From NCBI GenBank assembly GCA_964505085.1, contig CAZDGP010000002.1:32421-96420 (forward strand): a stretch of 64,000 nucleotides of DNA. Reading direction: 5' to 3'. The notes below the pieces were generated by a model. That model did no database searches, was not told the origin of the DNA, and saw only the letters and a list, made by a program, of their open reading frames with translations. Positions 1,091-64,000 of the stretch are shown here, piece by piece. Origin of the DNA: an uncultured Thermoplasmatales archaeon. Its GTDB lineage: Archaea > Thermoplasmatota > SW-10-69-26 > JACQPN01 > CAZDGP01. How positions within the stretch are numbered: the first letter of the stretch is position 1; each line of letters opens with the position of its first letter. The position numbers were made by a program, and so were the translations under genes.

Positions 1091-1660
1091 TCAGGACCCC
1101 AGGCTCACCGTCACGGGCACGGGGTTGCGGAGCACGTCCACCACGGGGGAGGTCTCCTGCACGTACTCGCAGAGCTCCACGAGGTCCTCCCGGGGTGCGT
1201 CGGCCTCCACGCTGTAGTTCACGCGGATACCCTCGTACCCGGGGCGCTTCGTCTCCGAGAGGCCGAGGAACGCGTGGAGGTCGAGGTCACCCTCGATCTC
1301 GAAGTCCAGCGACTCCACCTCGATGCCCTTGGCGGCGGCGTTGTACACGAAGCCCACGGCCAGGCACGAGGCCAGAGCGTGGAGCACGGTCTCCACGGCG
1401 TTGGGGCCGGCGTTCTCCCCCAGGAGCACCGGGGGCTCGTCGCCCACGAGGACGAAGGGCTCCTCCCGGCTGATGTCCTCGCCACCGGCGCCGTAGAACC
1501 CCTGGATCTCCGTCTCGGTCCGGCCTCCACCCTGCCACGTGCTGGTGGCGCGGAACTGGAAGCGGGCCAGGTCCGGGTCGCCCTGGATGGCTTCGATGGT
1601 CTTCGTCAGCTTGCTCACGTCTACTCCGTTCACGTTCGTCGCGGTGTCGGTCTGGGTCAT
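1091..1660 (-). CDS. OsmC/Ohr family peroxiredoxin-like protein.
   Basis: 189-aa ORF with an OsmC-like sequence (..ASCLAVGFVYNAAAKGIEVESLDFEIEGDLDL..). ATG at 1658-1660. Confidence 0.8.
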   Translation of the reverse strand: MTQTDTATNVNGVDVSKLTKTIEAIQGDPDLARFQFRATSTWQGGGRTETEIQGFYGAGGEDISREEPFVLVGDEPPVLLGENAGPNAVETVLHALASCLAVGFVYNAAAKGIEVESLDFEIEGDLDLHAFLGLSETKRPGYEGIRVNYSVEADAPREDLVELCEYVQETSPVVDVLRNPVPVTVSLGS

Positions 1661-1742
1661 GGCGGTTCTCTCCTTGGTGTCGTTGGGTTGAGGCGTATGC
1701 AGGGATGGAGGGGTCTCGACCCCTCCGGGGCGGTTGCGGAGC

Positions 1743-2543
1743 TCACGCGTCCTTCCGGGCGGTCACCACCAGGGCTTCGGCCTCGTAGTGCGCGGCGGTC
1801 TCCCGGGCGTCCTCCCGCGGTGCGGCCGAGAAGTAGTCCAGCCGGTGCTGGACCTCCACGTCCTGGAACCCGGCGGCGCGGATGGCGTCGAGGTAGTCCT
1901 CCTGGAGGATGGCACCGGCGATGCAAGCGGCCCACAGCTCCCCGTCGCACCGGGCGGCGTCGGGGATCGCCTTGTTCACCACGATGTCCGCGAGCTGGAG
2001 GCGCCCGCCGGGAGCGAGGACGCGGTGGACCTCCTGGAAGGCCGCCTCCTTGTCCGGCACGAGGTTCACGACGCCGTTGCTGGTGACGACGTCCACGGAC
2101 GCGTCCGGGAGGGGGATGCGCTCGCCGGCGTCCCCGTGGAGCACCATGGCGTTGTGGGCGTCCACGGCGCGGATGTTCGCCAGGGCCCGGCTCAGCATGG
2201 CGGTGGTCATGTCGAGGCCCAGGGCGAGGCCGCTCTCCCCCACGCGGTCCGCGGCGATGAGGAGGTCGGTGCCGCTTCCGGAGCCTACGTCGAGGACGGT
2301 GTCGCCGGGTTGGATGGCCTCCGCGAGGAAGGGGTAGCCCACGCCGGCGAAGCTCCGGAGCGCCTCGTGGGGCAGGGGGTCCAGGTCGCTGGCGGGGTAG
2401 CCCACGAACTCCGCGGCCTTCCGGCCCACGGGGAAGTGGAGGTCCCCGCTGGGGTCGTCGGCCACGGTCGTGTACATGTCGGTGACGTTCTCGCGGAGGT
2501 CCGCGGGATCCGGCGCTTCGTCCACGGTCTTCGTTGGTGCCAT
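1743..2543 (-). CDS. SAM-dependent methyltransferase, ArsM-like (arsenite/thiol methyltransferase family).
   Basis: VLDVGSGSGTDLL SAM motif, C-terminal LWAACIAGAIL Cys motif typical of ArsM, and a DVVTSNGVVNL motif. Confidence 0.8.
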   Translation of the reverse strand: MAPTKTVDEAPDPADLRENVTDMYTTVADDPSGDLHFPVGRKAAEFVGYPASDLDPLPHEALRSFAGVGYPFLAEAIQPGDTVLDVGSGSGTDLLIAADRVGESGLALGLDMTTAMLSRALANIRAVDAHNAMVLHGDAGERIPLPDASVDVVTSNGVVNLVPDKEAAFQEVHRVLAPGGRLQLADIVVNKAIPDAARCDGELWAACIAGAILQEDYLDAIRAAGFQDVEVQHRLDYFSAAPREDARETAAHYEAEALVVTARKDA

Positions 2544-31784: not shown

Positions 31785-31847
31785 CGCGGTCAAGATGAGA
31801 GAAGAGGAACGGGGGAGAAGGGGCGTTGTGGCCCGTGGCGTGGAGCC

Positions 31848-33615: not shown

Positions 33616-33620
33616 ACCGA

Positions 33621-33670
33621 CCCCCTCCCTTCCCCCCGTCCCCCTTCTTCCCCCCGTCCCCATCCTCCGT
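33621..33670 (+). terminator. 50-nt polypyrimidine (C/T) tract immediately downstream of the stop codon; putative archaeal terminator.
   Basis: ccccctcccttccccccgtcccccttcttccccccgtccccatcctcc. A similar sense-strand CT tract follows EF-2 at 46606-46656. Confidence 0.3.
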
Positions 33671-43584: not shown

Positions 43585-44262
43585 ATGCCCGTGCTGACCC
43601 CCCCCATCGTGGCCGTGAACCTCAAGGCCTACCCCCCCGCCGTGGGTGCGCAAGCTGTCCCCCTCGCCAGGGCGCTGGAGGAGGCGGCCGCGTCGGCGGA
43701 AGCCACCGTGGCCGTGGCGCCCCAGCTCGCGGACCTCGCCCCGGTGGCGGAGGCCGTGGACCTCCCGGTGCTCGCCCAGCACGTGGACCCCATGGAGCCC
43801 GGTCGGGGCACCGGCGGCGCCTTGGCGGAGGCCGTGGCCGACGCCGGCGCCGTGGGCACGCTCCTCAACCACAGCGAGCGCGCCGTGGGCTTCAACGACC
43901 TCGCCGCCACCGTGACCCGGTGCAGCGATGTAGGCCTCGAGACCGTCGTCTGCGTGGACACCCCCGCGAGCGCCCGCGCCGCCGCGGGCCTGGAGCCCAC
44001 GTACGTGGCTGTGGAACCTCCGGAGCTCATCGGAGGGGACGTGAGCGTCACGAGCGCCGACCCCGGCATCGTGACGCGGACCGTGGCCACCGTGCAGGAC
44101 GTGGCTCCGGGGGTGGGGGTGCTCACGGGCGCCGGCGTGAAGACGGGTGAGGACGTGGCTAAAGCCCTGGAGCTTGGTACCGAGGGCGTGCTCCTCGCCA
44201 GCGGCGTGGCCAAGGCCGCGGACCCGGGGAAGGCGCTCCGGGAGCTCCTCACGGGCGTCTGA
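43585..44262 (+). CDS. tpiA: Triosephosphate isomerase (archaeal type).
   Basis: 225 aa. VAVNLKAY..LLNHSERAV..VAVEPPELIGG archaeal TIM motifs. Confidence 0.9.
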   Translation: MPVLTPPIVAVNLKAYPPAVGAQAVPLARALEEAAASAEATVAVAPQLADLAPVAEAVDLPVLAQHVDPMEPGRGTGGALAEAVADAGAVGTLLNHSERAVGFNDLAATVTRCSDVGLETVVCVDTPASARAAAGLEPTYVAVEPPELIGGDVSVTSADPGIVTRTVATVQDVAPGVGVLTGAGVKTGEDVAKALELGTEGVLLASGVAKAADPGKALRELLTGV

Positions 44263-44335
44263 ACCGCGTCGGAGCGCCGGTCCACCCCCGGGGCCAACCT
44301 ACTTATCCCTTCCTTCCCTACCCTCCTCCGAGACC

Positions 44336-45637
44336 ATGCCCTCCGAGAAGCCCATCCTGCAGGTGGCCCTCGACGTGTACAACATCCACCGCGCCCTGGA
44401 GATCGCGGAGGAGGCCGTGGAGGGCGGCGCCGACTGGGTGGAGGCCGGCACGCCCCTCATCAAGAGCGAGGGGTTGAACGCCGTCCGCGACCTGAAGAAG
44501 GCCTTCCCCGACCGCACCGTGGTGGCCGATATGAAGACCATGGACACGGGGAGCCTCGAGACCGAGATGGCCATCAAAGCTGGCGCGGGCGTCGTGACGA
44601 TCCTGGGCGCAAGCCACGATGGCACCATCCGGGAGGCGGTGGAGGCCGCCCGCAAGTACGGCGGGGAGGTCATGGTGGACCTCATCGGCGTGGAGGACAA
44701 GCCCGCCCGCGCCCGGGAGGTGGAGGAGCTCGGGGCCCACTACGTGGGGCTCCACGTGGGCGTGGACGAGCAGATGGAGGGCCTGAGCCCCGTGGACCTC
44801 GTGCGGGACGTGGTGGAGGCCACGAGCCTCCCCGTGGCCATCGCTGGGGGTCTCACGAGCGAGACCGTGGCGCCCCTCGTGGAGGCTGGCGCCCGCGTCA
44901 TCATCGTGGGCGGGGCCATCCACAAGGCCCAGGACGCCACCGAAGCCGCGAGGCGCCTGCGCCGGGCGCTGGACGATCTGGAGGTGGTGGAGTCCCAGGG
45001 GTTCCGCAAGTTCGACGAGACCGAGCTCCGGGAGGCCTTCACCCTGGCGAGCACCGCCAACGTGAGCGACGCCATGCACCGGGAGGGCGCCATGGACGGC
45101 CTCCACCCGGTGACGGAGGGGGCCAAGGCCGTGGGGCGGGCGGTTACGGTCCGCTGCATGGACGGGGACTGGGCCAAGCCCGTGGAGGCCATCGACGAGG
45201 CGGAGGAGGGCGACGTCCTCGTCATCCGTGTGGACGGCACCGATGCCGCCGTGTGGGGGGAGCTCGCGAGCCACTCCTGCATGATGAACGGCATCGCGGG
45301 CGTGGTCATCGACGGCGCCATCCGGGACGTGGAGGACATCCGCGAGATGGGGTTCCCCGCGTGGGCGCGGGTGGAGCGCCCCAACGCCGGCGATCCCAAG
45401 GGCTTCGGCGAGGTGGGGGTGGAGGTCACGTGCGGGAACCAGCGGGTGCGCGCCGGCGACTGGATCGTGGCCGACGAGAGCGGCGTCGTCGTGGTGCCCC
45501 GGGACCAGGCGGTGGAGCTCGCGAACCGCGCGGTGGACGTGAAGGAGCAGGAGGACCGCCTCCGGGAGGAGATCAAGCGGGGCTCCTCGCTTTCGAAGGT
45601 GCTGAAGCTCAAGAAGTGGGAGAAGGTCGTCGGGTAG
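44336..45637 (+). CDS. Bifunctional 3-hexulose-6-phosphate synthase (N-terminal) and RraA/MenG-family domain (C-terminal).
   Basis: N-terminus ILQVALDV..GADWVEAGTPLIK..VADMKTMD is an HPS/OMPDC fold. C-terminus ..VVIDGAIRDVEDIREMGFPAWAR.. is an RraA-family signature. Confidence 0.85.
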   Translation: MPSEKPILQVALDVYNIHRALEIAEEAVEGGADWVEAGTPLIKSEGLNAVRDLKKAFPDRTVVADMKTMDTGSLETEMAIKAGAGVVTILGASHDGTIREAVEAARKYGGEVMVDLIGVEDKPARAREVEELGAHYVGLHVGVDEQMEGLSPVDLVRDVVEATSLPVAIAGGLTSETVAPLVEAGARVIIVGGAIHKAQDATEAARRLRRALDDLEVVESQGFRKFDETELREAFTLASTANVSDAMHREGAMDGLHPVTEGAKAVGRAVTVRCMDGDWAKPVEAIDEAEEGDVLVIRVDGTDAAVWGELASHSCMMNGIAGVVIDGAIRDVEDIREMGFPAWARVERPNAGDPKGFGEVGVEVTCGNQRVRAGDWIVADESGVVVVPRDQAVELANRAVDVKEQEDRLREEIKRGSSLSKVLKLKKWEKVVG

Positions 45638-45655
45638 AGTCTACCCGACGACCTT
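45623..45655 (+). terminator. Perfect 15-bp stem/3-nt loop hairpin whose 5' arm is the last four codons plus the TAG stop of the HPS-RraA gene.
   Basis: aaggtcgtcgggtag-agt-ctacccgacgacctt. It is followed by two more hairpins (cggatgc-gga-gcatccg at about 45667; ggtggttggata-acgggc-tatccaaccacc at about 45700). Confidence 0.4.
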
Positions 45656-45746
45656 CCGGCCGTGCCGAGGCGGATGCGGAGCATCCGATGAGGTGCGGGC
45701 GTGAAGGTGGTTGGATAACGGGCTATCCAACCACCCATCCACCCCC

Positions 45747-45767
45747 ACCTATAGCGCCCTATAGGGG
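45747..45767. repeat. Palindromic element ACCTATAG-cgcc-CTATAGGGG (same architecture as 1001-1020).
   Basis: Seen directly. Half-sites are 10 bp apart. Confidence 0.5.
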
Positions 45768-45873
45768 CCTCTGGGCCCATGGGTCCAGGGTCCCCGGGTG
45801 CATCCTGCACCTTCCCCCCTACCGCAACCCTCCTACCCATCGAAACATACATCTGCCCTACAGGTGACGCTTC

Positions 45874-46605: not shown

Positions 46606-46656
46606 CTGAGAAGGGAGGACGGGGGAAGAAGAGGGGGGAGGAAGGGAGGGGAGCGG
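46606..46656. repeat. 51-nt polypurine/polypyrimidine tract (GA-rich on plus; CT-rich on the EF-2 sense strand just after its stop).
   Basis: gagaagggaggacgggggaagaagaggggggaggaagggaggggagcggg. Confidence 0.4.
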
Positions 46657-46659
46657 GTT

Positions 46660-48867
46660 CTACCCAGCGTAGTACGCGGCCCCGTAGGGCTCGGGCTTGA
46701 GGCCCTTCCGCTGCCGGATCTCGCTCGTGACCTCACTGAGGAGGCTCTGGGGCACGCTGTCGAAGCCCGCGTGCTCCGTGCTCCAGAGGGCACGGCCGCC
46801 GGTGGCGGAGCGGATGGCGTTGCTGAACCCGAACATCTCGCCCACGGGTGCCTTGGCGTGGATCGTGGTCATGTCGCCCTCCTGCTCCATGTCCTCGATG
46901 ACGCCGCGGCGCTGCTGCAGCTCCCGCGTGGCGTCGCCCATGACATCCTGGGGTACGCTGATGTACACCTTCTGCATGGGCTCCAGGAGCTCCGTGCCGG
47001 CCTCGGTCATGGCGCCGTAGACGGCGTTCCGCACGGCGGGGATGACCTGGGCGGGACCCCGGTGGATGGCGTCCTCGTGGAGCTTCGCGTCGTGGAGTCG
47101 CACCATGACGCCGCGGCAGGGCTCGTTGGCCCGGGGACCGCTCTCCATCACCTGCTCGTAGGCCTCGATGACGAGCTCGATGGTCTCGTGGAGGTACTGG
47201 ATACCCTTCGTGTCGTCCACGAGGAGGTTGTACCCGCTGGTGGCCCGCCAGTTCCGGATGAAGTCCCGGTCGATGTCCCACTCGTCCGCGAACTCCTTCG
47301 CCAGGTCCTTCGCATCCTGCTTCTTGATCTTCCCCTCGGGGACGTCACCCTCGTGGATGAGGTCCACGATCTGGTCGGGGAGGGGTTCCACGGTGACGTA
47401 GAACCGGTTGTGCTTGTTCGGGGACTTCCCCTCGAACTCCCGGGGGCTCGGCTTCTTGATGTGCTCCCGGTACACCACGATGGGCGGGCTCGTTTCCACC
47501 TCCACCTCGTGCTCATGCACGATGCGGTGCTCGGTGATCTCCAGGTGGAGCTCCCCCATGCCGCTCATGAGGTGCTCCCCGGTCTCCTGGTCGATCTGCA
47601 CCTGGATGCTGGGGTCGGCCTTGCTCACGGAGTGGAGCACCTGCACGAGCTTCGGAAGGTCCCGCATGTGCTTCGCCTCCACGGCCACCGTGACCACGGG
47701 CTCGCTCACGTGCACGATCTTCTCGAAGGGCTCCATGTCGCCCAGGCTCGAGACGGTGGACCCCGCGATGGCGTCCCGGAGGCCCGTGACGGCGACGATG
47801 TTGCCGGCAACGACCTCCTCCACCTGCACGCGGTCGTTCCCCACCATGACGCTCACCTGCTGGGTGCGGTTCGTGCCGGCGAAGCCCAGGATGTGGAGGT
47901 TCTGACCCTTCTGTACGCTGCCGCTGAAGACACGGCCGAAGACCACCTCGCCCGCGTGGGGGTCCATGATGATCTTCGTCACCATGATGGTGATGGGGCC
48001 GCTGGGGTCGGTCTCCACCATGGCCTTGCCCACCTCGGACTCGAGGTCGCCGTCCCAGATGTTGGGGATCCGGTACTTCTGCGCCACGTCGGCGCTGGGA
48101 AGGTGCCGGATGACCATGTTGAGCAGGACCTCGTGGACGGGAGCCTCCTTCCGGAGCTTGAGGAACTCCTCGTCCCGGTTCCAGTTGTAGATGTCCTCGA
48201 AGGTGATGCCGGTCTTCTCCATGTACGGCATGTTGATGGCCCAGTTGTAGAGGGCGGACCCGAAGGCTACGGAACCGTCCTCCACCTTGACCTTCCACTC
48301 GCCCTTGAACTCGTGGGGCACCATCTTCGTGATGAGGTCGTTCACCTGGCGGATGACCTTGATGAACTGCTGCTGCATCTCCTGGGGGTCGACCTTGAGC
48401 TCGTTGATGAGCCGGTCCACCTTGTTGATGAAGAGCACGGGCTTCACCTTCTCCCGGAGCGCCTGCCGCACCACGGTCTCGGTCTGGGGCATGACGCCCT
48501 CCACGGCGTCCACCACGATGACGGCGCCGTCCACGGCGCGCATGGCGCGGGTGACGTCGCCGCCGAAGTCCACGTGGCCGGGGGTGTCGATGAGGTTGAT
48601 GAGGAAGTCATCGCCCTCGAAGTCGTGCACCATGCTGGCGCTGGCAGCGTTGATGGTGATGCCGCGCTCCTGCTCCTGCTCGTCGAAGTCCAGTGCCAGC
48701 TGTTGGCCCGCCAGCTCCTCCGACATCATGCCGGCGCCGGCGAGGAGGTTGTCCGAGAGCGTCGTCTTGCCGTGATCGATGTGAGCCGCGATCCCGATGT
48801 TCCGGATCTGCTCCGGCTCGTACATGATCTCCTTGGCTTTCGCGATGTTGTCCTCTTTCCGTCCCAC
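46660..48867 (-). CDS. fusA: Translation elongation factor 2 (aEF-2), GTG start.
   Basis: [48 protein letters not shown].. matches the EF-2 N-terminus. The track ORF carries a spurious 77-aa N-terminal extension. The diphthamide-region H and the G'' domain are present. Confidence 0.95.
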
Positions 48868-48961
48868 GTGGATCAGCTCCGTGATGAGGGACCTTCGGGA
48901 GAAGGTTCCTTGGATCTTCAAGGGGGGCCCGGGGGCCCGCCTCGGGGGGTATATCGGGCAC

Positions 48962-48977
48962 CTCATTATAAGGCTTT
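48962..48977 (-). promoter_or_regulatory. EF-2 promoter (minus-strand AAAGCCTTATAATGAG), about 70-nt structured 5' UTR.
   Basis: TATA consensus match. A hairpin GGAACCUUCUCCCGAAGGUCC abuts the GTG start. Confidence 0.45.
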
Positions 48978-49187
48978 GGACGCGCGGGAGCGCGCCTCCG
49001 ATGCTCCCCGGTGGGGTCGGTGGGGTATAACGGTTGCGTGAGGAAGGTTGGCAAGGGGGGAGGGAGGATGAGCTCGCGGCCGCGGGATCGCGCTGCAACC
49101 CCGCGACGCGACCTTTGTCGGCTCCGCAGAAGCCCGGAGGGCTTCGAGGATGCCCACCGCGGGAGCGCAGCGAGCGCGGTGGCAGTC

Positions 49188-49490
49188 GCCAAATCAGCGA
49201 GCTGATTTGGCCAGTTCGGAACCGCGCTGCGGTTCCGAAGTTCGACCGTGCCGGGAGAGCCCGAAGGGCCGGCAGGTCAGCCAGACCGAGGAACGAGGGA
49301 GGGCTGGCCTGGCGATGGGCTGGGACCCGGCACGGTCTCTCGCGAAGTCGTCGCTAACGCGGCGGAGATGAAGGAAGGGGTAGAGAACACGCGGAACTGC
49401 GCTGCAGTTCCGCGATGCCACCGAACAGGGGAGAGAAGGGCAGCGACGCCTGTTCGGTGGGCATGGCGAAGTCAGCGAGCTGACTTCGCC
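49188..49490. repeat. Cluster of five palindromic hairpin elements in the S7-EF2 spacer: two type-A (49188-49211, 49465-49490), two type-B (49217-49237, 49392-49412) and one long (49419-49459).
   Basis: Type A is gCCAAATCAGCGAGCTGATTTGGc versus gGCGAAGTCAGCGAGCTGACTTCGCc. Type B is CGGAACCGCGCTGCGGTTCCG versus CGGAACTGCGCTGCAGTTCCG. The substitutions are compensatory and preserve the palindrome. The arrangement A-B...B-X-A is symmetric. Confidence 0.6.
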
Positions 49491-50044
49491 ACCCGCTCGA
49501 CCTCGTCCTTCCGGGAGACCCCGTAGGAACGTTGGTCGTTCTTGCTCCCCTGGATGATCTCCTGGGCGAGGCACTCCGCGATGCCCTTGGGGTTCTTGTG
49601 GCTGGAGTTCACCGCGCCGGTGCAGACGTTGCGGATGGCGGTGTCGAGGCGGCGACCGGGCGCCGTGTCCACGGCCTTGGGGACGCTGATGCCACCGTAG
49701 CGCAGCCGCGTGACCTCCTCGCGGGGTGCGCTGTTCTCCAGGGCCTCCACGAGGACCTGGACGGGGTTCGCGTCGAGCTTGTCGTGGACGATGTCGAAGG
49801 CGTCGCGCACGGCCTTGTAGGCGCTGTGCTTCTTGCCGGTGAACTTCTCACCGCGCATGAGCTCGTTGATGACGCGCTCCACGATGCTCACCTTCTGGTT
49901 GCCGAAGGGGCGGTTCGCGTGGCGGGCGCCGCTGTGGGCGACGATGACGGGCTCGAGGTTGATGTAGTTCTCCAGGCCCTTGTCGTTCACCACGACCTCG
50001 TTCAGGTCCCACTTGTCGAAGAGGAGGGGGGCTTCGTATGCCAT
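49472..50044 (-). CDS. rps7: 30S ribosomal protein S7 (uS7).
   Basis: MAYEAPLLFDKWDLNEVVVNDKGLENYINLEPVIVAHSGARHANRPFGNQK..; the rest of the track ORF is an artefact. Confidence 0.9.
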   Translation of the reverse strand: MAYEAPLLFDKWDLNEVVVNDKGLENYINLEPVIVAHSGARHANRPFGNQKVSIVERVINELMRGEKFTGKKHSAYKAVRDAFDIVHDKLDANPVQVLVEALENSAPREEVTRLRYGGISVPKAVDTAPGRRLDTAIRNVCTGAVNSSHKNPKGIAECLAQEIIQGSKNDQRSYGVSRKDEVERVAKSAR

Positions 50045-50049
50045 GTGGT

Positions 50050-50478
50050 TCACCGCATGGGCTTCTCGATGCGTCCCTCGACGAGCTCCACGAGAGCCAC
50101 GCCGTTCACCTTGATGACCTTGTAGCGCACGCCGGGGATGTCCCCGTAGGAACGGCCCATGGCGCCGCCGATCCCCTCGAGCATGACCTCGTCGTGCTCG
50201 TCGATGTAGTTGATGGCGCCGTCGCCGGGGGCGAAGGCCGTGACCATGCGACCGTTCTTGATGAGCTGCACCTTCACGCACTTGCGGATGGCGCTGTTCG
50301 GTTGCTTGGCCTCGATACCCACCTTCTCCAGGACGATGCCCCGACCTTGGGGTGTGCCCTCGAGGGGGTCGGCCTTCTCCTTGAGCTTGAGAACCCGCTT
50401 CTTGTAGTACCGGTCGCTCCACCGGAACTTCTGCCGGTCCTTCTTGAGCTTCCGGGCAGCGTACTTGCCTTTCGCCAT
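50050..50478 (-). CDS. rps12: 30S ribosomal protein S12 (uS12).
   Basis: [57 protein letters not shown]..; embedded in a 726-aa artefactual track ORF. Confidence 0.9.
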
Positions 50479-50570
50479 GGGGAGGTCACCTGCGATGAGG
50501 GGAAGTGCCCGCCGGATCCGGTTCCCACAGGGGGTCGGGGCCAGGGGACGCAGCCCCCGATACGGCATCA

Positions 50571-50585
50571 TCCTATATAAGGTTG
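50571..50585 (-). promoter_or_regulatory. S12-S7 operon promoter (minus-strand AACCTTATATAGGATG), about 65-nt leader.
   Basis: TATA consensus match. Confidence 0.45.
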
Positions 50586-50657
50586 GTGGGGCGTTTCGGG
50601 GGTGGATCCACGGCGGATGCGAGAGGGGGGGAGGGGGTGGTGGGAGCGGCGCCAGTG

Positions 50658-52256
50658 TCAGGCCTCGGCCTCGGCGGCCACGCCGGCGGGACTGGGTTCC
50701 CTTGGCGGTTCGAAGGTGTCCCACTCGATGGGGGAGACGTCGAGCCAGGGGTCGTCCTCCACGGTGGGCTCCTCGCGGAAGCTCCGCCAGATGGCCCACA
50801 CGAAGAAGAGCTGACCCAGCGCCAGCACCCAGGCGCCGATGGTGGCGAGCTGGTTCATGAACTGGAACGCCTCGAGGTAATCGTACACGCGCCGGGGCAT
50901 GCCCGCGAGGCCCACCAGGTGCATCGTCATGAACACGAGGTTCATCCCGATGAGGGTGGTCCAGAAGTGGGCGAGGCCGAGCTTGCGGTCGAGCACGCGC
51001 CCGAACATGCGGGGCCACCAGTAGTAGAGGCCGGCGAAGACGCCCAGCACGCTGCCTCCGAAGAGCACGTAGTGGATGTGGCTCACCACCCAGTAGGTGT
51101 CGTGGAGCTGGTAGTCCACGGGGATGCTCGCCATGAAGATGCCGTCGACGCCGCCGATGACGAACATGGCGAGGAACCCGAGGCACCAGAGGAAGGGGAG
51201 CTTCGTGTTCGTGCGACCGCCCCAGATGGTGGCGATCCAGTTGAACATCTTGACGCCCGTCGGGACGCCGATGATCATGGTGGTGAACATGAACCCGGCG
51301 CGGATGCGGGGGTCGATGCCCGTGGTGAACATGTGGTGGGCCCACACGGTGAAGCCCAGGAACCCGATGGCGCTGATGCTGTAGGCCATGGCGTGGTACC
51401 CGAAGATGGGGCGGTCCACCATGCGGGGGATGATCTCGCTGATGATGCCCATGGCGGGGAGGATCATGACGTAGACAGCGGGATGGCTGTAGAACCAGAA
51501 GAGGTGCTGGTACAGGACGGGGTCGCCGCTGGCCACGAAGAAGAGCGTCCCCAGGTTCCGGTCGAGGAAGTTCATGAGGATCGCGTTCCCGATCATGGGC
51601 GTGGCGAAGGTGATGAGCACCGCCGTGATGAACTGAGCCCACACGAAGAGGCTCATGTTGTGGAAGTGGATGCCGGGCTTCCGCATCTTGAGGGTGGTGA
51701 CGATGAAGTTCACGGCACCCATCATGCTGCTGATGCCCACGAGGTGGATGGCGGTGATCCACAGGTCCACGCCGGGGGCGCCGGCGGACCCGATCTGGGA
51801 GCCTGCGACGCCGGCAAGCGGCGGGTACGCGGTCCAGCCCACGGCGGCCACCGTCTCCCCGAACTCGATGCCCGGGAGGAACCCGATGATGACGCCGGTG
51901 TAGAGGAGCATGCCGGCGCTGAGGTACGTCCAGTAGCTCAGGGCGTTGAGCCGGGGGTAGGCCATGTCGGGGGCGCCGATGAGGAGCGGCAGGAAGTAGT
52001 TCCCGAAGGCCGCCATGATGGGGATGATGAAGAAGAAGATCATCGTCGTGCCATGGAGGCTGAACATGTTGTAGAAGAACCCGGGGTCCACGATGGTCCG
52101 CCCCGTGCTCCAGAGCTCCGTGCGCACGATGAGGGCGGCGATGCCACCCAGGAGGAAGAAGACGGCGCTCGTCCAGAGGTAGAGGATACCGATCTTCTTG
52201 TGGTCCGTGGTGAGGACCCACCGCTTCCACGCGGGGACGTTGCCGTGGGCACCCAC
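50658..52256 (-). CDS. Heme-copper oxidase subunit I (cytochrome c oxidase CoxI).
   Basis: 532 aa, 12 TM. Canonical His ligands (..[19 protein letters not shown]..) and the GTG start codon 52254-52256. Confidence 0.9.
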
Positions 52257-52257
52257 G

Positions 52258-53130
52258 CTAGATCACCCCCACGTAGATGACGAGGTAGAGGACGATCCAC
52301 ACCACGTCCACGAAGTGCCAGTAGATGGCGAAGGCGGCGAGGCTCGTGTGGCGCTCGGTGCTGTAGGCCCCCTTGAGGGTGCGGTAGAGGGCCACGCCCA
52401 GGAGGCAGATGCCCAGGAGCACGTGGACCCCGTGGGTGCCCGTGAGGAGGTAGAAGATGCTGCCGAACTGGCTGCTTCCGAGGGTGAGGCCGTGGCTGAT
52501 GAGCCCCATGTACTCCTTCACCTGGACCGCGAGGAAGATGATGCCCAGGAGGATGGCTCCCACGAGGCCGTTGCGGAGCCCATCGAGGTCGTTCCCGTCC
52601 TTGAGCTTCTTCTCACCCCAGTGGAGCACGAAGCCGCTGGAGACCAGGATGGCGGTGTTCACGGTGACGAGGGCAAGCTCCTCGGTGACGAGGTGGTGGG
52701 CCTCGGCCCACGCTTGAGGGTCGGCCGCCCGGAAGACGAAGTAGGTCGCGAAGAGCCCGCCGAAGAGCATGACCTCCGTGGCCAGGAACCCGACGATGCC
52801 CCACCATCCCACGGGCTTCCCCGGGCGGACGCCGGGGAGGCGGTACCCGGTCTCCCAGTCGTGCATGGCCTCGCCAGCCCAGCGGAGGAGACCCCAGGCC
52901 ACCACGGCGAGGCCGAGAGGCGCGATGACGGGCACCGGAAGGATCCACGCGCCCACGGGCAGCTCGAAGGCGAGGCCCAGGTACGCGAAGAAGGCGCCGA
53001 CACCCACGATGAGCGGTGCGGTGCTGAGGTGGTGCTCCACCTCGTGCTCGTCCTCGGTGACGGACCCGTCGGACCCGGTAGCCGCCTGCGTGGCCAAGGG
53101 TGGTTTCCTCCGCGCGGCGGATGCCCCCAT
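52258..53130 (-). CDS. Cytochrome c oxidase subunit III.
   Basis: CoxIII-like helices (..GVHVLLGICLLGVALYR..HFVDVVWIVLYLVIY). ATG 53128-53130 chosen over the track's upstream TTG. Confidence 0.85.
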   Translation of the reverse strand: MGASAARRKPPLATQAATGSDGSVTEDEHEVEHHLSTAPLIVGVGAFFAYLGLAFELPVGAWILPVPVIAPLGLAVVAWGLLRWAGEAMHDWETGYRLPGVRPGKPVGWWGIVGFLATEVMLFGGLFATYFVFRAADPQAWAEAHHLVTEELALVTVNTAILVSSGFVLHWGEKKLKDGNDLDGLRNGLVGAILLGIIFLAVQVKEYMGLISHGLTLGSSQFGSIFYLLTGTHGVHVLLGICLLGVALYRTLKGAYSTERHTSLAAFAIYWHFVDVVWIVLYLVIYVGVI

Positions 53131-53218
53131 CTGGTAGAAGTAGTTTTCCCCGACCTCCGGTGGACCACCGTGGAGCAAACATTTTTAGCAACCTTCTCCG
53201 TTGCGCCCCCCAGTCCCC

Positions 53219-62242: not shown

Positions 62243-62251
62243 CGAGGCACG

Positions 62252-63067
62252 ATGACGAACGAGCTCCAGGACCTCTTCCTGAGCGTGACGGGGCACGACC
62301 CCGTGGTCCAGGCCCTCGTGGCCGGCCTCGTCATCGCGGGGTTCAACATGCTGGGGGCGATCCTCGTCCTCGTGTGGCGGAACCCCAGCGAACGCTCCCT
62401 GGACGGGGCCCTGGGATTCGCCGCCGGCGTCATGCTCGCCGCGAGCTTCACGAGCCTCATCCTCCCCGGCGTGGAGGCAGCTGGCGGGAGCGTGCTTCCG
62501 GTGCTCGTGGGCATCGCGTTGGGCGCTCTCGTGCTGGACCGGGCCGACGCGTGGGTGCCCCACGTGCACGTGCTCATCACCGGGAAGGCGCGCCCCGACG
62601 CCGCCCGGGACGGACGGCTCCCCGCGGCGAGCGTCATCCTCTTCATCGTGGCCGTGACGTTGCACAACATCCCCGAGGGCCTCGCCGTGGGCGTGGGCTT
62701 CGGCAGCGGCAACCTCGAGAACGCCCTGAGCCTCATGCTCGCCATCGGGTTCCAGAACGTGCCCGAGGGCCTCGCCGTGAGCGTCGCCGCCATCAACGCC
62801 GGGTTCGACCGCCGAAGCTACGCAGCCCTCGTGGGCATCCGCAGCGGGCTCGTGGAGGTGCCCCTCACGGTGCTGGGTGCGTGGGCGGTGATCGTCATGG
62901 CGCCGCTCCTCCCCTACGCCATGGGCTTCGCCGCCGGCGGCATGCTCTACGTCATCATGGACGAGATCGTGCCCGAGACCCACCTCCGAGGCCACGAACG
63001 CATCGCCACCCTCGGCCTCATGATCGGGGTCATCGTGATGCTTTGGCTGGACGTGGCTCTCACGTGA
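62252..63067 (+). CDS. zupT: ZIP-family zinc/metal transporter ZupT.
   Basis: HNIPEGLAVGVGF, QNVPEGLAVSVA and 8 TM helices. Confidence 0.85.
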   Translation: MTNELQDLFLSVTGHDPVVQALVAGLVIAGFNMLGAILVLVWRNPSERSLDGALGFAAGVMLAASFTSLILPGVEAAGGSVLPVLVGIALGALVLDRADAWVPHVHVLITGKARPDAARDGRLPAASVILFIVAVTLHNIPEGLAVGVGFGSGNLENALSLMLAIGFQNVPEGLAVSVAAINAGFDRRSYAALVGIRSGLVEVPLTVLGAWAVIVMAPLLPYAMGFAAGGMLYVIMDEIVPETHLRGHERIATLGLMIGVIVMLWLDVALT

Positions 63068-63072
63068 CCCCG

Positions 63073-63103
63073 AACCTATAGGGACCTATAGGGCCCTATA
63101 GGT
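63073..63103. repeat. Three tandem 10-bp-phased palindromic CCTATAGG units (ACCTATAGGG ACCTATAGGG CCCTATAGGT) between the convergent zupT and nfo genes.
   Basis: Seen directly. Each 8-mer is self-complementary. Confidence 0.55.
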
Positions 63104-63130: not shown

Positions 63131-63967
63131 CTACGCGCGAAGGCTCCGCAAGGTCTCCAGGTCCTGCACGTACGTGTCCGCCGAGGTCTCCAGGTACCCG
63201 GGGGTCCCCTCGAACCGTGGATCGTTGAGGAGGCGCTCGAAGCATCCGGTGCCGATCTCGCCCTCGCCGATGGCGGCGTGGCCGTCCTTCTCGCTCTCGA
63301 AGGGGTTGCGGGCGTCGTTGAGGTGGAAGGCCTTGAGCTTCTCGAGCCCCACGAGGTCGTCGAACGTCTGGAAGGTCTCCTCGTACCCCTTCGCCTCGTG
63401 GATGGGGTACCCGGCGACGAAGGTGTGGCACGTGTCGAAGCAGACGCCCACGCGCTCCGGGTCCGAGACCATGTCGATGATGTCCGCGAGCTCCTGGAAG
63501 CTCCGCCCCACCTGCGTGCCCGCCCCCGGCATCGTCTCGATGAGGGGGATGGCGTCCACGTCCCCCGCGTCCTCCAGCGCCTGGTCGATGCCCGCCGCCA
63601 CGCGCTCGAGACCGCCCTCGCGGGACCCGGACTTGTGGCTGCCGGGGTGGAAGCAGACCCAGGGGATGCCCAGGGCGTCGGCGCGGGTGAGCTCGATCTT
63701 GAGCTGCTCCACGCCCTTCGCCCACTGGTCGTCGTCGGGGCTGGCGATGTTGATGAGGTACATGGCGTGGACGAGGCTCGGGCCCAGATCCCGCGCCTCC
63801 ATCTCCCGCTGCCACGCCTCCACGTCCTCGGGGCTCAGGGGGTCCACCTTGTACCCGCGGGGGTTCCGCGTGAAGACCTGGATGACCTCGCAATCGTAGT
63901 CCTCGGTTCCGCTGACGGGGGCGTTCTGTACGCCGCCGGAGATGCTCACGTGGGCGCCGACGAGCAT
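63131..63967 (-). CDS. nfo: Endonuclease IV (AP endonuclease, Nfo).
   Basis: GAHVSISGG..VFTRNPRG..FHPGSH..CFDTCHTFVAGY..AFHLNDA. All Endo IV metal-binding motifs are present. Confidence 0.9.
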   Translation of the reverse strand: MLVGAHVSISGGVQNAPVSGTEDYDCEVIQVFTRNPRGYKVDPLSPEDVEAWQREMEARDLGPSLVHAMYLINIASPDDDQWAKGVEQLKIELTRADALGIPWVCFHPGSHKSGSREGGLERVAAGIDQALEDAGDVDAIPLIETMPGAGTQVGRSFQELADIIDMVSDPERVGVCFDTCHTFVAGYPIHEAKGYEETFQTFDDLVGLEKLKAFHLNDARNPFESEKDGHAAIGEGEIGTGCFERLLNDPRFEGTPGYLETSADTYVQDLETLRSLRA

Positions 63968-64000
63968 GGTGACCGCTCCCGGGAACGGGGTTCCCCCCTT

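Follow-up and report, generated by a model that had tools for sequence, protein, structure and literature searches.

Clustered hairpins between the ribosomal protein S7 and EF-2 genes of a GC-rich Thermoplasmatota archaeon: a candidate 3'-end cassette of the S12-S7 transcript and its apparent local duplication

The DNA analyzed in this study is a 64-kb stretch (hereafter the window) from a deep-branching member of the Thermoplasmatota, the closest S7 relatives of which share 64-70% identity and the closest EF-2 relative 78%. The GC content of the window is 68.9%, and T-runs are almost absent from it. The minus-strand genes of S12, S7 and EF-2 were confirmed by Pfam, together with COX1 upstream of S12, and the genes cox3-cox1-S12-S7-EF-2 are all co-directional. 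The C-terminus of S7 belongs to a motif, ERVA[AKQV]SAR followed by the stop codon, that is conserved among homologues across the Thermoplasmatota. The initial annotation of this region had noted that S7 and EF-2, usually adjacent, are here separated by about 600 nt. This was confirmed: the spacer measures 604 nt (48868-49471), whereas the gap is 1-96 nt in the 46 Thermoplasmatota relatives having both genes.

The spacer is non-coding. It showed no codon periodicity, with GC fractions of 0.70/0.67/0.65 in the three phases versus 0.66/0.35/0.96 in EF-2, and the two plus-strand open reading frames of the spacer that were compared with Pfam (73 and 92 aa) had zero matches. A tRNA/tmRNA scan found none. 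Two relatives carry a conserved hydrophobic open reading frame of about 45 aa, which ends in ...GNPFC and is convergent with S7 (L081 895-1030 and L209 2625-2760, both on the minus strand); it is absent from the window. The idea that the spacer holds a remnant of this small convergent membrane-protein frame was examined, and none was found.

Along the sense strand, the S7 end with hairpin A1 is followed by X, B2, a pyrimidine tract, H, B1, A2, X', C, B'', a further tract and the EF-2 promoter (Table 1). The five main palindromes (A2, B1, B2, X and A1) lie exactly where they had first been described, and their arms are 100% complementary, with strictly Watson-Crick pairing. The outermost A copy does overlap the S7 stop codon, as had been reported, since A1 covers this TGA. 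The extent originally given, about 300 bp, stood in part: five hairpins lie in 49188-49491, but the array runs over 49081-49491 and adds H, X', C and B''. The array comprises about nine hairpins.

Table 1. Features of the S7-EF-2 region in window coordinates, listed along the sense strand
Feature	Coordinates	Strand	Description
Ribosomal protein S7 gene	49472..50044	-	190 aa, C-terminus ...VERVAKSAR; Pfam PF00177, E 1e-41
S7 stop codon TGA	49474-49472	-	inside hairpin A1
Hairpin A1	49464-49491	-	13-bp perfect arms, 2-nt loop; final S7 codons and stop codon form the 5' arm
Hairpin X	49418-49460	-	12-bp perfect arms, 19-nt loop holding pyrimidine tract 49423-49446 (sense strand)
Hairpin B2	49390-49414	-	11-bp arms, 3-nt loop; terminator-like by consensus scan
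Pyrimidine tract directly 3' of B2, TGTTCTCTACCCCTTCCTTCATCTCCGCC	49361..49389	-	sense strand
Long hairpin H	49244-49337	-	12-bp perfect outer stem, imperfect inner stems
Hairpin B1	49215-49239	-	11-bp arms, 3-nt loop; 3 pairs differ from B2, all compensated
Hairpin A2	49188-49211	-	11-bp arms, 2-nt loop; copy of S7 3' end
Hairpin X'	49154-49182	-	8-bp arms; shortened paralogue of X; within 53-nt direct repeat D1
Hairpin C	49129-49145	-	7-bp perfect arms, 3-nt loop; second module only
Hairpin B'' (third B copy)	49081-49105	-	11 pairs on sense strand including 2 G.U
Pyrimidine tract after B''	49049..49073	-	start of the ~200-nt EF-2 upstream region conserved with L209
EF-2 promoter motif AGCCTTATAA	48966..48975	-	BRE/TATA-like, genome-specific consensus
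EF-2 Shine-Dalgarno GGAGCTGATC	48882-48873	-	
EF-2 gene	46660..48867	-	GTG start 48867-48865; 735 aa; Pfam

The hairpin cluster is far beyond chance. When hairpins were counted whose stem was perfect over 10 bp or more and whose loop did not exceed 20 nt, the whole window held 11, and 5 of these fell within a 303-nt stretch that makes up 0.5% of it. First-order Markov simulations gave an expectation of 3.8±1.7 such hairpins per 64 kb. The fold z of the hairpin region was -9.7 (sense) and -9.1 (antisense), and it reached -10.8 for the 630-nt stretch 48871-49500, which takes in the whole spacer. The inner stems of H gave the better fold on the antisense strand.

The initial annotation had described the hairpins as a symmetric A-B-B-X-A array. 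This arrangement was not borne out by the loops. Read on the plus strand, both A copies have the loop GA and the B copies have GCT. Since the loop bases keep one orientation across the copies, the copies are direct repeats and not the arms of a mirror-symmetric element.

The sequence of the A copies bears on where the array came from. On the sense strand, A2 reads GCC AAA TCA GCT CGC TGA, which corresponds to AKSAR-stop (TGA 49196-49194) out of frame with S7. The true S7 end reads GCG AAG TCA GCT CGC TGA and differs from A2 at 2 synonymous third positions. Because AKSAR-stop is the conserved C-terminus of S7, the A arm represents coding sequence and A2 has to derive from the S7 3' end. A2 is thus a fossil S7 3' end. 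A read-through or frameshift link from S7 to the AKSAR-stop of A2 was also considered and rejected, as the offset of 278 nt cannot be divided by 3 and the frame between the two carries no coding signal.

The resemblance is not limited to A. The module 49513->49364 (S7-end/A1-X-B2-tract) and the module 49237->49057 (B1/A2-X'-C-B''-tract) aligned with a score of 53, and the shuffle control gave 24±4 with a maximum of 42. Hairpin H, however, has no counterpart in the second module and is not paralogous to the promoter-proximal sequence. A simple tandem duplication of a 278-nt unit was rejected for this reason: the paralogy is limited to the A-X-B-tract part, and both H and the promoter-proximal region fall outside it. 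These facts indicate a module duplication with local additions (B1, H and C) and not one clean tandem repeat. The array, by this comparison, appears to have grown by local duplication of a 3'-end cassette of the S12-S7 transcription unit.

A different origin had been offered in the initial annotation, namely insertion of a MITE/REP-like element. In this reading the palindromes belong to a REP/BIME-like or MITE/PATE-like mobile family, spread by a Y1 transposase (RAYT or IS200/IS605 TnpA-type) acting on single-stranded DNA hairpins, that accumulated at this site. The array is indeed REP-like in consisting of short GC-rich extragenic palindromes that cluster at a gene 3' end and whose copies differ by compensated changes, and the genome span searched for further copies was 64 kb. 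Comparable clustering and compensated differences are described for REPs in BIMEs (PMC2817692, PMC3733652). The searches, however, turned up no dispersed family. Pattern search, BLAST and unfiltered scans with two covariance models recovered the spacer copies and no A or B copy elsewhere in the window, and the covariance models R1 and R2 had no matches on the contigs of relatives. Exact patterns gave 0 matches for B and 2 chance matches for A in a viral collection. A metagenome scan with the A pattern alone returned about 120 matches, which by our estimate is close to the chance level for an 18-mer in a collection of that size; none lay beside an S7 gene, none shared more than about 25 nt with the spacer, and two that were read directly (L161 and L205) were unrelated.

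The structure of the array also speaks against a mobile family. Since A2 carries the S7 C-terminal codons, this copy came from the gene and not from an element, and the modules are local paralogues. The copies are direct and not alternating. No GTAG or CGTC tag adjoins the stems: the nearest GTAG lies at 49381-49384, 5 nt from B2, none is present at B1, A1 or A2, and CGTC occurs only in loops and linkers. The features of a MITE are missing as well, in that the A and B copies are direct repeats and not terminal inverted repeats, no flanking target-site duplication was found, and there is no further copy. The array therefore differs from RAYT-associated REP/BIME palindromes in its dispersal within 64 kb, its tags, its orientation and the descent of one arm from S7 coding sequence, and we regard a mobile origin as very improbable. 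REPs stabilise upstream mRNA and aid termination. The function that we propose below for the array, stabilisation of mRNA and an aid to termination, would be similar.

The spacer was compared with the corresponding regions of relatives, as the initial annotation had advised. Downstream of S7, the sequences of L209 and of L081-L086 have no homology to the spacer, and the array is absent there. The array thus appears to be lineage-specific, limited to the lineage of this genome. In L209, cox genes intervene and 7.7 kb separate S12-S7 from EF-2. L209 and the window nevertheless share about 200 nt of homologous sequence ahead of EF-2, the promoter motif among it, with a score of 88 versus 37±6 for shuffles. 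Because this upstream region is conserved despite the 7.7-kb gap, EF-2 seems to be an independent unit in this clade. Gene order differs between L209 1292-12208 and window 46660-53184, and S12-S7 is convergent with COX1 in L209. This difference raises the possibility that rearrangement in this clade has had a breakpoint at the S7 3' flank. It is worth noting that L081 and L084, relatives with 70% S7 identity, contain direct repeats of about 105 nt with GAGCGAGAKAGGGGTTCCCGC...GGCGGCCCCCGCAG (L081 1215-1400, L084 1280-1399), located 500-700 nt downstream of S7.

The promoter of EF-2 had been placed at 48962-48977, and this placement holds. The site matches a genome-specific promoter-like motif, A[AG][CG]CTT[ACT][AT][AGT][AGT], which has 9 matches in the window, nearly all of them intergenic and upstream of genes. 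These matches include 50584 on the minus strand before S12, 48975 on the minus strand before EF-2, and 24365 and 36276 on the plus strand; AACCTTATAT is an example. The homologous sequence AAGTCTTATGATAGG lies upstream of EF-2 in L209. Within the spacer, the EF-2 motif is the sole match.

Transcript ends were considered next to these starts. We defined a pyrimidine tract as at least 18 C/T in 20 nt. Such tracts, 20-52 nt long, occur on the sense strand just 3' of the stop codons of EF-2 (52 nt) and cox1 and likewise in at least four further genes, and a tract also follows S7 in the relatives L081, L084 and L209. Pyrimidine tracts look like a general 3'-end signal in this genome of 69% GC, to judge from their positions. 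Tracts composed of pyrimidines only, directly 3' of stop codons, were noted at 46607-46658, 50615-50646, 31792-31825 and 1021-1048 on the minus strand and at 33617-33668 on the plus strand. Two sense-strand tracts lie within the array, one in the loop of X and one after B2, and a third lies after B'' just outside it. Since this third tract lies in sequence that L209 also has ahead of EF-2, and no co-directional gene stands before EF-2 there, the tract may not be part of a terminator. The spacer holds zero T-runs of 4 or more, and the tails are mixed C/T tracts. A loose consensus scan gave B2 with its tail, TGTTCTCTAC, as the sole terminator-like match.

Averaged over the window, the predicted structure was -20.1 kcal/mol at gene 3' ends and -19.0 kcal/mol in coding sequence, so that gene ends are no more structured on average, and the ends of EF-2 and cox1 have a pyrimidine tract but no hairpin. 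Hairpins are thus no general requirement at 3' ends in this genome.

We propose that the array consists of duplicated cassettes of hairpins and pyrimidine tracts that terminate the S12-S7 transcript or protect its 3' end, and we give this proposal about an even chance of being correct. The cassette would begin with A on the last S7 codons and the stop, continue with X and its pyrimidine-rich loop and then with B, and close with a pyrimidine tract. One complete but diverged copy (A2-X'-C-B'') would lie about 280 nt downstream, with the extra B1 and H between the two copies. On the sense transcript, the hairpins and the C/U-rich tracts would act in series. The hairpins could pause or terminate RNA polymerase, and at the end of the S12-S7 mRNA they could act as a barrier to 3'-to-5' exonucleases. 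S12-S7 would in this way be insulated from EF-2, which would start at its own promoter near 48975. A multi-hairpin terminator or insulator between the two units was among the possibilities raised by the initial annotation. It fits best, and the EF-2 promoter site named there matches the genome-specific motif and is conserved in a relative, but termination and stabilisation are activities that we infer.

Several observations support a role at the transcript end: the asymmetry in favour of the sense strand, seen in the tracts and in the G.U pairs of B'', the two promoters, the excess of hairpins, the local duplication, the pairing kept between copies, and the similar arrangements after the genes 44141..45637 and 1091..1762 described below. 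There are also observations against it. The stems are strictly Watson-Crick, and loops of 2-3 nt are too short for RNA; in these respects the hairpins look more like palindromes at the DNA level. For the inner stems of H, the antisense strand gives the better fold, and the spacer lacks oligo-T.

The differences between the copies were examined pair by pair. In the B family (B1, B2 and B''), 33 of 33 cells are paired on the sense strand; 5 pairs are double-changed and 2 are G.U pairs. In the A family, 2 pairs are double-changed, and both changes fall at synonymous third positions of S7 codons and are compensated. Taken together, the two families show 7 double changes and zero broken core pairs. 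The claim of the initial annotation that the A and B copies differ by paired changes is thus correct, with pairing kept throughout. The copies are about 25% diverged yet still paired, and X and X' share a retained stem base. The chance that all pairs survive random substitution is about 1e-4 for B2/B1, 2.5e-3 for B2/B'' and 1e-3 for A1/A2. The 2 G.U pairs of B'' are A.C mismatches on the other strand and pair only on the sense strand. Covariance model R1 scored B'' at 38.1 bits in the sense and 16.9 bits in the antisense direction.

The paired changes had been taken as a signature of selection. The part of this claim that stood is that pairing was kept to a degree improbable under random substitution. 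The inference of selection, however, is weakened, because template switching makes stems and apparently compensatory changes mechanically, in one step (PMC8794818). This brings in the main rival to the terminator proposal: the palindromes may have no function, template switching creating or re-perfecting inverted repeats and slippage duplicating them, and they would persist since the spacer is little constrained. All five main stems are perfect Watson-Crick helices with minimal loops of 2-3 nt, and this combination favours an origin at the DNA level. In A1 and in the hairpin at 45622, the last codons are followed by their own exact reverse complement, as one template-switch event yields; the region contains several nested local duplications; and gene ends in this window do not generally bear hairpins. 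The array resembles the hairpins treated by Mönttinen and Löytynoja (2022, PMC8794818) in having perfect stems and very short loops beside their template, and single events can explain multiple "compensatory" changes. That work, however, deals with how stems in known RNAs arise and are maintained, and here the mechanism would explain how the hairpins arose and not whether they are used.

Three observations are difficult to reconcile with palindromes that have no function. Pairing was kept in three B and two A copies at about 25% divergence, which would need repeated and independent re-perfecting. The strand-asymmetric features, that is, the sense-strand tracts after hairpins and the G.U pairs of B'' that form in the sense strand only, point to use in a transcript. 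Finally, the places where hairpins cluster are precisely the 3' ends of transcription units. We consider palindromes that are purely mutational by-products to be unlikely, though they form the main rival. The two explanations are compatible if the origin was mutational and the retention selective.

The strong fold could also be read as a platform for an RNA or a protein: a small RNA from the 3'-UTR, a feedback site of S7 or another ribosomal protein coupling S7 and EF-2, or operators of a dimeric protein at the EF-2 promoter. The very strong fold with covariation, the location between two genes of the translation apparatus and the dyad symmetry of the palindromes are all in keeping with such a platform. 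Rfam, however, returned 0 matches for the whole window at gathering thresholds, and in E-value mode on the spacer the best match was gabT, at 19.5 bits versus a threshold of 45 bits. As the only promoter motif of the spacer is that of EF-2, nothing in these results favours the small structured RNA mentioned in the initial annotation. The absence of the array from the nearest relatives argues against a conserved regulator. As for operators, symmetric changes in half-sites keep the pairing but alter the sequence that a dimeric protein would read, and about 105-515 nt separate the palindromes from the promoter, which lies downstream of them. Readings of this kind are, in our opinion, quite unlikely. 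C/D-box, replication-origin (ORB) and dif-site ideas were checked by eye and dropped, as the region has neither a C box nor an AT-rich unwinding region and lacks an orc/cdc6 context.

How the proposed termination of the S12-S7 transcript would agree with known systems deserves comment. According to two reports (PMC8716108, PMC7515710), archaeal termination canonically needs a U-tract and aCPSF1/FttA and not hairpins. In Haloferax volcanii, which is GC-rich, 503 termination sites are preceded by hairpins, and for one hairpin that was put to the test, termination amounted to 59% of transcripts (PMC7237163). The sites described by Berkemer et al. (2020, PMC7237163) resemble the present case in that hairpins lie just upstream of transcript 3' ends in a GC-rich archaeon. 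One hairpin terminates in vivo there, and leaky termination of this sort would favour elements in series. The array described here differs in having about nine mostly perfect hairpins, paralogous copies and C/T-rich tracts in place of T-runs.

In bacteria, hairpin clusters act as terminators (PMC8355165). The array shares with them GC-rich stem-loops that are clustered within tens of nt of a stop codon, and B2 with its tail fits the loose consensus scan. Unlike bacterial terminators, it would serve an archaeal RNA polymerase, it has no U-run, its first hairpin overlaps the stop codon, and the whole array extends over about 400 nt.

A broader interpretation would regard the array as an archaeal counterpart of a BIME. 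A hairpin cassette seeded by S7 would amplify locally and be selected as structured 3'-UTR RNA, setting the ratio of S12-S7 to EF-2 expression through termination, exonuclease blocking or protein binding. We hold this interpretation to be quite unlikely. If it were true, hairpin-dependent control of 3' ends would be real in a GC-rich Thermoplasmatota lineage without U-tracts.

How very GC-rich archaea, nearly devoid of T-runs, end their transcripts is poorly understood. The locus offers a compact natural test case, with two paralogous cassettes, one still on S7 and one a fossil. Functional hairpins would speak for hairpin-assisted termination or mRNA protection in archaea other than the haloarchaea, whereas hairpins without function would make the locus a clear instance of perfect stems built beside a gene by template switching and local duplication. 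In either case, it is a local feature of one uncultured lineage and no new class of element.

The window contains some further hairpins near gene ends. A second multi-hairpin 3' region, with a fold z of -7.7, lies at 45612-45800 on the plus strand. The gene 44141..45637, which encodes a fusion of OMPdecase/HPS and a RraA-like protein, has its TAG stop within reach of a 17-bp hairpin with a perfect stem (45622-45656) that overlaps it. On the 3' side of this hairpin are a nested hairpin of 7 bp, another of 12 bp (45706-45735) and a pyrimidine tract. A hairpin with a T/C tract also follows the gene 1091..1762. Between the convergent genes 62243..63067 (plus strand) and 63131..64000 (minus strand), three overlapping palindromes of the CCTATAGGG type (ACCTATAGGGACCTATAGGGCCCTATAGGT) occupy 63074-63103, and a similar sequence, CCCTATAGGG, is found at 45757.
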